Assembly (NCBI GenBank): GCA_963422645.2
Contig: CAXXVO010000004.1
Span: 576,001 to 640,000 of the forward strand
DNA length: 64,000 nucleotides
Reading direction: 5' to 3'
Source: Alphaproteobacteria bacterium
GTDB lineage: Bacteria; Pseudomonadota; Alphaproteobacteria; UBA828
Part shown: positions 1,539 through 5,732 of the stretch, piece by piece
Layout: the number at the start of each line of letters is the position of its first letter
How positions within the stretch are numbered: position 1 is the stretch's first letter
Notes under the pieces: model-generated
Databases searched by the model: none
Told to the model about the DNA's origin: nothing
What the model saw: the letters and a program-made list of their open reading frames with translations, nothing else
Translations under genes and position numbers: made by a program

Positions 1539-2220
1539 GAGGTCCTCCCTTGAAGTTCTTGCGGGCGGCGCTAATCACGTAGCGGCGCGGATCATCTCCC
1601 CCGCGCGCTCGCCGATCATAATGCAGGTGGCGTTGAGGTTGGCACTGACGACCGTCGGCATGATCGAGGCGTCGGCGACGTAGAGTCCCTCCATCCCGTG
1701 CACCTTGAGGCCGTCGTCCACCACCGCCATGGGATCATGCCCCATCTTGCAGGTGCCGGCAGGGTGATAGACGCCAATGGCGTTGGCGCGGATGTAGTCG
1801 GTCCACTCGTCGTCGCTCTGCACGTCCCTGCCGGGCAGGTGCTCGCCCACGATGTAGCGCGCGATGGGCTCGCTCTCCAGCACCGTGCGGAAGAAGCGGG
1901 AGCCCAGAATCAGGGTCTCGATGTCGCGCTCGTCGGCGAAGAGGTTGGGCTGGATCGCAGGCTGCTTCAGTGGATCGGCCGAGGCGAGGCGCACCCTACC
2001 GGCCGAATAGGGCCGGTGCAGGTTGGTGAGACCCGTGATCGCAGGCTTTTCGAAGGTAACTGCCCAGGTACCCCCTCTCTCTTATGGAACAAGCCAGTTC
2101 CTTTTGCGTCAACGCCCCCACGCCGCGGGGGTGCCTACTCTCTTGAGCGCGAGAGGATGATGAACGCCGCGTCGCGAACAAGATGAGAGGACAGCGATAC
2201 TCAGGATGAGCCGGAGAAGT

Positions 2221-3759
2221 TCAGGAGCGCAGTATAGGGATCAGCTGCATCGGTTCCGGGTGCGCCAGGATTTGCAGGATGTTCCAGCCTTGCTTTCGAG
2301 CGGTGACGATGACGCTGCGCATTCCGGCGAAGTTGCAGGCGCCTTGCAGGGAGCGGAAGCCGCCTGAGATCTTCTCATGCACTTTGTTCATACGGATGTC
2401 ACGCTCCGCCTCGTTATTCGTGAACGGCGTGCGCAGGTCGGTGAGGAAGCGCAGGCAGCCCTCCTTATGCTTTTGAAGGCGGCGCGCGAGGTTGTGGCCG
2501 ATGCGGCGTTTCTTTCGCCCTCGCTTTGCGATCTGGAGCGGCGGTTGGGCCTCATGGAAGGCGATGGCTTCTTCGAGGATACGGTCCCATGCCCTTGAGA
2601 TGCGGGCCACCAGGGAGGCGGGGACTTGACGGTCTTTCTCACGGGCGAAGCGGGCGGCCCTGCGCGCGCGCTGAAGCAGGCGGTGCATGCTCGCCGCCCA
2701 TTCCTCCTTCTCGATGTCGATCAGGGCCTGGAGTTCGCGCAGGTGATGTGCGTTGCAGGCGCCGTGGCGGACGCCCTTGATGGTGAAGTAGGGGGCGAAG
2801 TCGTCGTGGACGAGGATGCCTTTCAGGTTCTTTTCGACATCGCCGCGTCCCTCGCCGATGCGCAGGACGGTGAGCAACGGGGTGCACAGCACATGGAGCC
2901 AGCGGGTACGGGCGGCGATACGCAGGCCGGTCTCGTCGAGGTGCTTGACCGGCGCCTGCGTGCGGATCAGATCGGCGACATGGTCGAGGAAGCCCTCGAA
3001 GCGCTGCGCTGTGCGCCGGCCCATGGCGGCGATCGTGGCAGTGGAGATGGACACCGCGAAGATGTCGCTCATGAGTTCGGCCAGACGCTTCTCGGGCACG
3101 AACTGGGCGTACAGCAGGTAACTCACCCAAGCGGTGATGCGAGGGCCGTACTGGACCGGGGCGGTGACGCCCGGCGGGAAGGCGGCTCGTGTCAGCGTGC
3201 CGCATGCGCCGCAGAGGCAGCGATGGGCGCGGTGTTCGGTGACCTCGAGAGGCTGCGGCTCGGGTACGTCGAAGACCTGCCGACAGGCGGGCGCGCCTTG
3301 CCGGTCGGCGTCCGAGAGCTCGACGCCACAGCCGGAACAGGTGGAGGGGTGGTGATCGACGACACGGTCCGGGCTGTCGCTCCGCGCGAGGGTGGTTCCC
3401 TTGTGGCCGGGCTGGCCGCCACTGGGCCCGCCGGACTTTCCGCGCTGGCTTTGGGTGCGCCTCTGGGCTCCGCTTTTCTTCTTGAGCCCGTCGCTGGCGG
3501 GGGGCTTGCTGCTTGTGGTGCTGTTGAGGGCCGCGCTGCGCTCGAGTTCGGCGATGCGCTCGCGCAGGGCCGCGTTCTCCTGCTCGAGTGCGGCATTTTC
3601 CCGGGCGAGCGCGGTGGCTGATCGCAGCAGCCCCTGCCCCCATTCCCGGACGGCAACGACGACAGTGGTTGCGAGGGATGATGGCTCGAGAAGCTCCTTC
3701 AGGCAGCAGAAGGCCTCGTTACGGGCGGCGAGGTCTTCGTGCCAGTGCGACACCGTCAC
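2221..3759 (-). CDS. IS66 transposase (TnpC type), ~512 aa
   Basis: Coiled coil, LNSTTSSKPPASDG, CxxC...CxCxxC zinc finger, HLDETG / VHDDF / TNNEAER; GTG start at 3759 overlaps the MTase TGA (GTGA). Confidence 0.92.
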   Translation of the reverse strand: MTVSHWHEDLAARNEAFCCLKELLEPSSLATTVVVAVREWGQGLLRSATALARENAALEQENAALRERIAELERSAALNSTTSSKPPASDGLKKKSGAQRRTQSQRGKSGGPSGGQPGHKGTTLARSDSPDRVVDHHPSTCSGCGVELSDADRQGAPACRQVFDVPEPQPLEVTEHRAHRCLCGACGTLTRAAFPPGVTAPVQYGPRITAWVSYLLYAQFVPEKRLAELMSDIFAVSISTATIAAMGRRTAQRFEGFLDHVADLIRTQAPVKHLDETGLRIAARTRWLHVLCTPLLTVLRIGEGRGDVEKNLKGILVHDDFAPYFTIKGVRHGACNAHHLRELQALIDIEKEEWAASMHRLLQRARRAARFAREKDRQVPASLVARISRAWDRILEEAIAFHEAQPPLQIAKRGRKKRRIGHNLARRLQKHKEGCLRFLTDLRTPFTNNEAERDIRMNKVHEKISGGFRSLQGACNFAGMRSVIVTARKQGWNILQILAHPEPMQLIPILRS

Positions 3760-4421
3760 GTGTCTTCGGCCTCGACGGCCATCATGGCGGCGAGCACGGC
3801 GAGGCGTTCGCCCGGCGGCAAGGCCTGGTAGCGCCGGCCCCAGTTGGCTGCCTTGCGCTTGATGCGCTGGCGGTCGGTGAAGTTCCGGCCTGCGTGGCTG
3901 GCCCAATGCATCCGGTCGGGGGCGTAGTTGAACCAGACGACCTCGGTTCGCACCAGACCCTGGGTCGTGACCTGCAGCGCCAGCCGGCGCCATCCCGCCA
4001 GCACCTCGTCATAGAGCGCCGACGGATGGCCCGAGATCATGACCTGGCAGGGCAGAGCCTTGAGCAGCGCGAGAAGCGCGACGTGGCCGGCCTCCTCGTA
4101 CTCGAAGCGGTAGCGCTGCGCCGAGCGGCGGGTCGCGTGCAGATAGGGCGGATCGCTGTAAACCAGCTCCGGGCCCAGGAACGGGAACGAGGCCAGGAAG
4201 TCATGGGCACAGCCGTGAACCAGATCGACCGGGTAGTCGCAGACGAAGGCCTCGAGCGCCTGCGCATCGCGGTCGATGCCGATCGAACGCACGGCCGGCG
4301 GCTTGCGCTTCATCAGCGCCCCGCCCCCAAGGTGGCTTTCGATGTAGACGGAGTGCGGCGGCATCAGCGCAATCAGCGCTTGGCACAGACCTGCTGTCGC
4401 CTTCGAGCCGAAATACCCCAT
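3756..4421 (-). CDS. Small D12/Dam-like N6-adenine DNA methyltransferase (221 aa)
   Basis: N-terminal YFGSK, motif I ESHLGGGA, motif II IGIDRD, catalytic YSDPPY, C-terminal TEVVWFNY. Confidence 0.85.
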   Translation of the reverse strand: MGYFGSKATAGLCQALIALMPPHSVYIESHLGGGALMKRKPPAVRSIGIDRDAQALEAFVCDYPVDLVHGCAHDFLASFPFLGPELVYSDPPYLHATRRSAQRYRFEYEEAGHVALLALLKALPCQVMISGHPSALYDEVLAGWRRLALQVTTQGLVRTEVVWFNYAPDRMHWASHAGRNFTDRQRIKRKAANWGRRYQALPPGERLAVLAAMMAVEAEDT

Positions 4422-5732
4422 GGACCGCTCCCGTCACGCGAGAGAGCAGTCCATAGTCCCGCAACTCTATGAGGTCAAGAACCAATCGCGGTGGCAGAAC
4501 CAGGCCGCGGCCGCCGCCATAATCACCGTCCTCAACTCAGGATTGGGGTACCTGGGTAGTTACTTTCGAAGACCTCCGGCCCGTCGGCGGTCAGATCGTA
4601 GCCGGCCGGCGAGAAGAGATACTGCACGTGGCTGCGCGACTTGCTGGGGTCGCAGCGTCTGTAGCCGCAAACCTGGGCGATCGGCGTCAGACGCAGGCCC
4701 GGTGCCGGACAGCAGCCACTGGGCACCATAGACAAGCGCGCTGAGTAGCCCGGTTTGCACGTTGTAGGTCTTGCGGTTGACCCACATGGTCTGGCTGATC
4801 CCGGCGTGGTCCTGCATGTTCTCGCCAACGCCAGGCAGGTCGTTGCGCACCTCGATGCCGTGCTCGCGGAGGTGCGCCGCAGGCCCCACGCCGGAGAGCA
4901 TCAGGAGCTGCGGCGAGCCGAAGCTGCCCGCGCAAAGAACAACTGCCTTGGAGGCTGTTGCTCGCCTGCGCTTACCCCGGCGCAGATATTCGACGCCTGT
5001 GGCCCGGGTGCCCTCGAACGTGAGGCCCAGCGCCTGCGCGTGGGTCACGATGCGCAGGTTTGCACGCTCCTTGGCCGGCCAGAGATACGCGCGCGACGTG
5101 CTGTGCCGCCAGCCCTTTCGCTGGCTGGCCTGCATGTAGCCCACGCCCATCTGCGGCGGCAGGTTGATGTCCTCCCGGAACGTCATGCCCGCCTTCACGC
5201 AGCTCTCGATCAAGGCGCGGGAGAGCGGATGCACCGAGCGGATGTGGGAGACAGAAAGCGGGCCGCCGGCGCCACGGTACTCGTTGGCGCCTCCTTCGTA
5301 ATCCTCAAGCCGGCGGAAATAGGGAAGCACGGTCTCGAAGTCCCAGCCGCGACAGCCGAGCGCCGCCCAGCCGTTGTAATCCTCCGGCGCGCCCCGAATG
5401 AACGAGGTGGCGTTGATCGAACTGGTGCCGCCCAGCACCTTGCCGCGCGGCATGTAGTCCTCGCGCCCGTCGCGGGTGGGGTCGGGCTCCGCCATGAAGC
5501 GCCAGTCGTAGCGCGGGTTGGTGATCGCGAACAGCATGGTCGCCGCAGGCATGAGGATGGTGAGGCGGCGGTCCGAACCGCCGGCTTCCAGCAGCAGCAC
5601 CTGCCGCCGCCCGTCCTCCGAGAGGCGCGCAGCGACGACGCTCCCGGCCGAGCCGGCGCCGACCACGATGTAGTCCGCCTGATGCTCGGCCGGCATCGCC
5701 CGGACCGCTCGTCGACGTTAGGCGCCTTCCGA

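Follow-up and report, generated by a model that had tools for sequence, protein, structure and literature searches.

A Dam-like methylase gene ahead of the transposase in an IS66-family insertion sequence: a portable promoter-methylase cassette and candidate regulator of transposition

Introduction

The usual picture of an insertion sequence (IS) is that of a transposase flanked by two repeats, with host factors such as Dam borrowed for control. In IS10/Tn10, IS50/Tn5 and IS903, adenine methylation in the transposase promoter and in the ends couples transposition to the passage of the replication fork. These elements use the host Dam at GATC, while the IS66-family element described here would bring its own enzyme and its own site, and could act in a like manner at its -10 region. 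The element lies in a stretch of 64,000 nt (the window) that covers positions 576,001-640,000 of contig CAXXVO010000004.1 (assembly GCA_963422645.2, lineage UBA828); all coordinates below are window positions. Its first gene encodes a Dam-like protein of 221 amino acids (aa), and we propose that this methylase-like protein may regulate the element from a palindrome in its own promoter.

Several described systems resemble parts of this locus. Transporter ISs (tISs) are an accepted category of ISs with passenger genes, in which a non-transposase gene between the inverted repeats moves with the IS (PMC9330008, accessible portion), and the present element is a tIS by that definition. The usual passengers serve the host (resistance genes, regulators), whereas here the gene lies upstream of the transposase gene and appears to drive its expression; moreover, the methylase cassette is common to unrelated IS families. 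The ISBst12 group (ISDge4, ISBst12) shares with the element a lone IS66-type DDE transposase, the lack of tnpA and tnpB, an 8-bp target duplication and terminal repeats that start GTAACT or GTGACT; for ISDge4, the terminal repeats and the 8-bp duplication were compared through the part of its published description that was available (PMC12898284). That group is described with a single open reading frame (ORF), while the window element has two, the additional one being a methylase-like gene with its own promoter that overlaps the transposase start. The element is therefore a variant of the single-ORF ISBst12-like group.

The methylase-like protein itself has a studied homologue in the plasmid protein Upf31. 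According to the accessible part of the preprint (bioRxiv 10.1101/2024.02.05.579024), Upf31 causes no GATC methylation and no modification detectable by SMRT (single-molecule real-time) sequencing in methylation-free E. coli, strongly represses its own promoter, which is the site of an inverted repeat, and has a predicted C-terminal dimerisation domain. The two proteins are homologous over their full length and both genes have an inverted repeat at their own promoter. However, Upf31 is encoded by a stand-alone plasmid gene, is said there to act via KorB and has no transposase link, and its inverted repeat is unlike that of the IS in sequence. The orphan Dam-like methylases of phages and conjugative plasmids belong to the same protein family as well, but the IS-borne proteins form a clade of their own and are followed by a transposase.

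Results and discussion

Architecture of the element

The complete element occupies window 2056-4563 (2508 bp), and its right end in the window is the methylase-proximal end. Its features are as follows.

2048-2055: target-site duplication, copy 1, TTTCGAAG (8 bp), same letters as 4564-4571
2056-2074: transposase-distal terminal inverted repeat, 19 bp, GTAACTGCCCAGGTACCCC, begins GTAACT
2221-3759, minus strand: IS66-family DDE transposase, 512 aa, GTG start at 3759, stop at 2221-2223
3756-3759, minus strand: GTGA overlap, the methylase TGA stop being shared with the transposase GTG start
3756-4421, minus strand: Dam-like methylase-like gene, 221 aa, DPPY at residues 90-93 (DNA 4143-4154)
4416-4455, minus strand: predicted 5'-leader hairpin, with the Shine-Dalgarno sequence and start codon paired with the -10 region
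4450-4478, minus strand: promoter-like site TTGACC-17 nt-TATGGA (8/12), the start of the cassette
4452-4471, minus strand: CATAG-N10-CTATG palindrome within the spacer of the promoter, possibly an operator, a methylation site or both
4545-4563: methylase-proximal terminal inverted repeat, 19 bp, reverse complement of GTAACTGCCCAGGTACCCC at 18/19 positions
4564-4571: target-site duplication, copy 2, TTTCGAAG

The initial annotation of this stretch had reported 19-bp inverted repeats, an 8-bp target-site duplication, a DPPY motif and a GTGA overlap, and each of these features was found in the sequence. It had also held that the methylase-like gene and the transposase gene form a single mobile unit in an IS66-family element, which is borne out by further copies with duplications of their own (see below). 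The two genes fill 2221-4421, leaving non-coding ends of 142 and 165 bp. Three other long ORFs within the element gave no Pfam match, and two of them gave no PADLOC match. The reported absence of a nuclease partner thus agrees with our searches: among the ORFs of the element, Pfam and PADLOC revealed no cognate nuclease adjoining the methylase-like gene, as a restriction-modification system would have.

The transposase matched PF03050 (DDE_Tnp_IS66, E 4.4e-41), PF20042 (DUF6444, E 5.2e-10) and zf-IS66 (E 6e-5), and scored 289.7 bits against the NCBIfam IS66 transposase model NF033517 (cut-off 180). In relatives, transposase homology begins at the same GTG, and the GTGA overlap is kept in 11/11 IS66 clade-1 lineages examined, which supports the suggested translational coupling of the two genes. 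The further suggestion that the methylase stands in place of TnpA and TnpB did not hold. Because the transposase has a DUF6444 N-terminus, and the ends and the 8-bp duplication are ISDge4-like, the methylase-like gene is an addition to a single-gene IS and not a replacement. tnpA and tnpB are not present within the element, where the two genes take up the coding span; TnpB_IS66 occurs at 3 other places in the genome, and TnpB may be supplied from there in trans.

Distribution, cassette exchange and selection

Relatives of the methylase-like protein are numerous. A collection clustered at 90% identity contained 3706 at E <=0.001, and clustering at 50% identity gave 5660 representative clusters at the same threshold, with 563 at E <=1e-30. 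A scan of one genome per species yielded 142 loci, and the best 80 of the 142 were examined for neighbours. By their titles, these 80 loci belong to Alphaproteobacteria, Gammaproteobacteria, Tectimicrobiota, Dehalococcoidia, Binatia, Planctomycetota, Bacillota, Acidobacteria and one Uhrbacteria genome. A DDE transposase gene lies directly downstream on the same strand in 78 of them. The partner is an IS66 clade-1 transposase in 61 loci, a clade-2 transposase (about 30% identical) in 9, a member of a third IS66 clade (26%) in 1 and a DDE_5 transposase (PF13546) in 7; some of these partner transposases are broken. The DDE_5 elements are 2.78 kb long, with different repeats and a 5-bp duplication.

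The other two loci (L076 and L079, 4867-5692), both from one Thalassobaculaceae genome, consist of the terminal repeat, the promoter and the methylase-like gene, with different DNA behind them. In L076, the one of the two that was checked, the 221-aa ORF is intact. These loci may be decaying remnants or domesticated copies.

Nucleotide similarity between the window element and the DDE_5 elements is limited to the segment from 57 nt upstream of the ATG through the methylase stop, where it reaches 83%. As the similarity is confined to the promoter and methylase stretch, the cassette has, judging from this comparison, moved between transposon families. Hence the promoter and the methylase-like gene appear, from sequence, as a shared portable cassette that is exchanged between transposase families. 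In the protein phylogeny, the IS-borne sequences fall into a single clade (support 100/97), separate from the plasmid and prophage relatives, and the partner types group on the tree with as few changes as possible. Captures were therefore rare and were followed by long co-descent. As a side observation, about 500 bp separate the terminal repeat from the cassette start in the DDE_5 elements (L084 4446-5000; also L080, L081, L085 and L086).

The ratio of nonsynonymous to synonymous substitution rates (dN/dS, NG86) was 0.08-0.28 for the methylase-like gene in 36 measurable pairs, one further pair having no synonymous differences, and 0.19-0.30 for the transposase gene, with one near-identical pair left out. 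The methylase-like gene is under purifying selection. Among the findings that the initial annotation had named as speaking against its proposal are a one-off capture and neutral evolution of the gene. Neither agrees with a pair found in 78/80 related loci or with the dN/dS values.

Searches of the full-text literature did not turn up any report of an IS66 or DDE_5 element with a methylase gene in it, although an IS catalogue entry may exist. Likewise, the accessible parts of PMC9330008, PMC9296519, PMC5144681 and PMC4914505 hold no account of such a gene.

A promoter palindrome private to the element

In an upstream alignment of 25 representatives, the pattern TTGAC-3-ATAG-10-CTAT was present in all partner types, and its CTAT overlaps a -10-like TATGNN. 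The aligned promoter of two clade-2 loci (L092 and L097) reads TTGACA-17-TATGCT (10/12). Exact matches to CATAG-N10-CTATG number 59 in the 5.9-Mb genome, where about 0.7 would be expected; all of them lie within this IS, one per element. When other spacers of 6-14 were tried, no spacing gave more than 1 genome match. The related loci, 789 kb in all, contain 60 exact palindromes, each of them about 50-58 nt upstream of the start codon of the methylase-like gene. It is thus exact in 60 of the 80 loci, and in the other 20 it differs at one or two positions. This palindrome also lies upstream of plasmid homologues (Xanthomonas, Lichenicola, Sphingobium) and of a Caulobacter homologue, and near-variants stand upstream of Photobacterium homologues.

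The leader between promoter and gene is predicted to fold into a hairpin with a minimum free energy of -24.0 kcal/mol (z -4.5, single-sequence fold, mononucleotide shuffles). Comparable leader hairpins with other arm sequences were predicted in relatives (z <=-2 in 19/23). GGTACC in the terminal repeats was also considered as a target of the methylase, and was dropped because the IS66 clade-2 repeats do not contain it.

The methylase-like protein and its relatives

Sequence profiles place the protein only loosely among known methylases. No Pfam match was obtained at E 0.01; PF02086 (12.1 bits, cut-off 22) and TIGR00571 (22.1 bits, cut-off 114.85) both scored below their thresholds, and a PDB sequence search gave no match up to E 10. 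Matches were obtained with phrog_56 (E 2e-17) and PADLOC MTase_II (E 5.6e-22). The AlphaFold model (predicted local distance difference test score, pLDDT, 77) resembles E. coli Dam (2g1p_B; Z 17.3, root-mean-square deviation 2.5, 149 residues aligned) and T4 Dam (Z 16.8), followed by Mcbe1 and DpnM; Foldseek likewise ranked Dam and DpnM at the top. Model residues 1-167 cover Dam 8-270 with just 149 residues aligned, and DPPY begins at residue 90 as against profile position ~180. Dam's DNA-recognition insert, between motif I and DPPY, is therefore missing. Residues 168-221 form two conserved basic helices that no structural match covers. GSK, LGGGA (L31-A35) and D90/P91/P92 are invariant in 32 sequences, and DPPY is present in 137/150 of the best family representatives, down to about 40% identity. 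A homodimer prediction scored 0.26 against a mark of 0.42.

Homologues at 46-56% identity are carried by 196 plasmids, of which 134 are conjugative; upf31.0 of IncP-1 beta plasmids is one of these homologues. The pBP136 Upf31 shares 45% identity with the window protein along its whole length (222 columns, E 8e-68) and keeps DPPY and LGGG. A Yersinia prophage relative, with 44-64% identity to a representative that is itself 48% identical, adjoins a P2-type replication nickase. Plasmids of sphingomonads and Burkholderia carry the homologue behind a gene of 358 aa, which one record annotates as a zeta toxin family protein (L112 227-2199; L116-L118 2770-4699), and L112 carries CATAG-N10-CTATG upstream of this gene pair. 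ISSp1 (IS1380 family) was considered as the carrier on Sphingobium plasmids and rejected: three other plasmids share the upstream gene and their downstream neighbours differ.

A putative self-encoded regulator

What does the cassette do for the element? We consider it somewhat probable, at about 0.55, that the methylase-like protein is the element's own regulator, acting at the promoter palindrome. This proposal rests on three points: the transposase is made only via the cassette, the site is private to the IS, and the studied homologue represses itself. As to the first point, there is no visible transposase promoter and the transposase start lies on the methylase stop, so the transposase would be made only through the cassette. 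The proposed course of events is as follows. A single-transposase, ISBst12-like IS66 element would have taken up, as its first gene, a portable cassette that comprises the promoter, its spacer palindrome, a leader hairpin presumably covering the ribosome-binding site and the 221-aa Dam-like protein. This protein would recognise the palindrome in its own promoter and thereby set the level or timing of methylase-transposase expression, and the outcome would be a self-encoded brake on transposition. The protein could act by binding DNA, given the autorepression by its homologue Upf31, and probably by methylating the adenines of the half-sites as well. Because the catalytic motifs are conserved, such methylation is probably part of the mechanism; by analogy, the Upf31 result speaks against a frequent target. 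Among the three functions offered by the initial annotation, self-regulation is favoured by the private and conserved palindrome in the cassette promoter, while a restriction shield or a reshaped host methylome becomes less likely in view of the only experiment on a homologue: Upf31, according to the accessible part of the preprint, represses its own promoter without detectable methylation.

Several points weigh against this proposal. Binding, methylation, repression and the role of the hairpin are steps that we infer. The window promoter reaches 8/12 only, which is under the scan threshold, and was thus not called. The right half-site and the -10 box overlap, and constraint on the promoter may account for some of the conservation of this half-site. 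The centre-to-centre distance of the half-sites, 15 bp, is unusual for a dimer on one helix face. RNAalifold found no consensus structure in 22 joint leaders, because the hairpin arms cannot be aligned between the two groups. Conservation of the DPPY and S-adenosylmethionine (SAM) motifs would be unneeded for a plain repressor, yet the tested homologue shows no methylation, so that these lines of evidence conflict. The proposed operator of Upf31 differs in sequence, and the analogy is therefore one of position and homology. Finally, this one genome holds 75 full-length copies of the methylase-like gene, and any brake must be leaky.

Other functions have to be weighed against the same evidence. 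The protein might repress its operon as a pseudo-enzyme, binding DNA with SAM as cofactor or sensor and transferring no methyl group. The autorepression by Upf31 without detected methylation (in the part of the study available), the palindrome in the promoter spacer and the conserved basic C-terminal two-helix region all fit this idea, but we regard it as unlikely: the invariant D90, P91, P92 and LGGGA and the DPPY in 137/150 are hard to explain without catalysis or base flipping. In addition, the SMRT-negative host and vector apparently lacked the plasmid's repeat sites, as far as the accessible text shows, so a rare-site enzyme would have been missed. The gene could instead encode a protective or genome-wide methylase that modifies a short frequent motif and shields the vector from restriction or alters host expression. 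Conserved catalytic and SAM motifs, a modelled fold like that of Dam and T4 Dam, and matches to phage and type II methylase profiles would suit such an enzyme, as would relatives in a P2-like prophage (44-64% identity) and on largely conjugative plasmids (134/196), and the missing Dam recognition insert could mean relaxed specificity. Nevertheless, an IS is not expressed before its vector enters the cell, a nuclease partner is not present, and Upf31 gave neither GATC methylation nor a SMRT signal in methylation-free E. coli in the reported portion. A shield also leaves unexplained the private promoter palindrome and the fixed position before the transposase in four transposase lineages, and we therefore consider this function improbable. 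Passenger genes without a role for the element have precedent in the accepted tIS category (PMC9330008, accessible portion). For the present gene, neutral cargo is highly implausible and is excluded by selection and architecture: dN/dS is 0.08-0.28, the ORF is intact in 36/36 full-length copies, position and strand are constant in 78/80 loci and across four transposase lineages, and the transposase translation start depends on the gene.

A more specific form of self-regulation is also conceivable, and we put it forward tentatively, as possible but doubtful. The cassette could be a portable, self-contained epigenetic switch for transposons, in which the enzyme would methylate the palindrome adenines in its own promoter. 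The -10 hexamer overlaps the right half-site, CTAT, and has the A of that half-site as its second base. Full methylation would silence a copy, and just after replication only one hemimethylated daughter would be active. The result would be an IS10-style control, coupled to replication and independent of copy number, with no need for the host Dam. Such a switch would need nothing from the transposase, which would explain why unrelated IS families (the IS66 clades and DDE_5) took up the cassette repeatedly.

Whatever the mechanism, a conserved promoter-plus-methylase module is carried by a large set of elements, with thousands of protein records in many phyla; it is swapped between unrelated transposase families, and transposase expression must pass through it. 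If the protein is indeed a self-encoded regulator, it would add a new and general level to the control of transposons, and would provide a function for a very large family annotated as 'DNA adenine methylase', including the plasmid protein Upf31 with its negative methylation test. The system is compact and lends itself to direct tests in E. coli.

Insertion site, copy number and activity in the genome

The element disrupts a gene for a GMC oxidoreductase, with the N domain on one side and the C domain on the other.

1575-2055, minus strand: GMC oxidoreductase, 3' part, PF05199 (GMC_oxred_C), E 1.1e-37
4564-5696, minus strand: GMC oxidoreductase, 5' part, PF00732 (GMC_oxred_N), E 7.5e-50

Removal of the element and one duplicate in silico gave an unbroken reading frame over the joint into the GMC_oxred_C part. 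A contig of the public run X6 connects 2047 to 4564 with one duplication copy retained, and hence the empty site is present in a related population. Independently of the IS, the frame of the oxidoreductase gene shifts again at ~4700-4712 (minus strand), ~140 bp before the insertion site, either through a second lesion or through an assembly error at a homopolymer. In the same run, the summed contig depth (window 1900-4700) was 566-1481 over the element and 2.5-9 on the flanks. Such a depth is no copy count, but it fits a sample in which the element has a very high copy number.

Copies in the window's own 5.9-Mb assembly were searched with blastn at >=90% identity. Among 105 pieces, 36 are full-length copies with at least 99.7% identity, and all 36 retain the 221-aa methylase ORF; their transposase is 512 aa long in 28, 513 aa in 6 and frameshifted in 2. 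As many as 22 of the 36 have their own distinct and perfect 8-bp duplication, mostly A+T-rich. The element is thus an intact, recently active IS. The remaining 14 have mismatched flanks, several pairs being reciprocal (e.g. C9:531722-534228 and C6:391794-394300), which points to inversions or translocations through recombination between IS copies. Gene loss and rearrangement in this genome thus have one of their main drivers in the element.

The same genome contains a second methylase-carrying IS66 subfamily of ~24 genes and ~2.36 kb (e.g. C10:127908-128567), whose methylase-like protein is ~87% and whose transposase is 76% identical to those of the window element. A match at E <=1e-40 was found in only 4 of 40 other genomes of the same class, so the spread is patchy. 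A look-up of RNA runs that contain the element listed none; three presumed RNA runs gave a 166-nt contig within the transposase gene or nothing, and are uninformative on expression.

A different IS, with the end motif GGTCAGGAAGTCTG, interrupts at least 9 copies of the element at the position equivalent to window 2488-2493, and the outer flanks of these copies differ. The IS with GGTCAGGAAGTCTG ends is either site-specific or part of a nested pair mobilised in trans. In the second subfamily, 2 of 8 copies have it within the promoter palindrome as well, where it separates TAT from AG.

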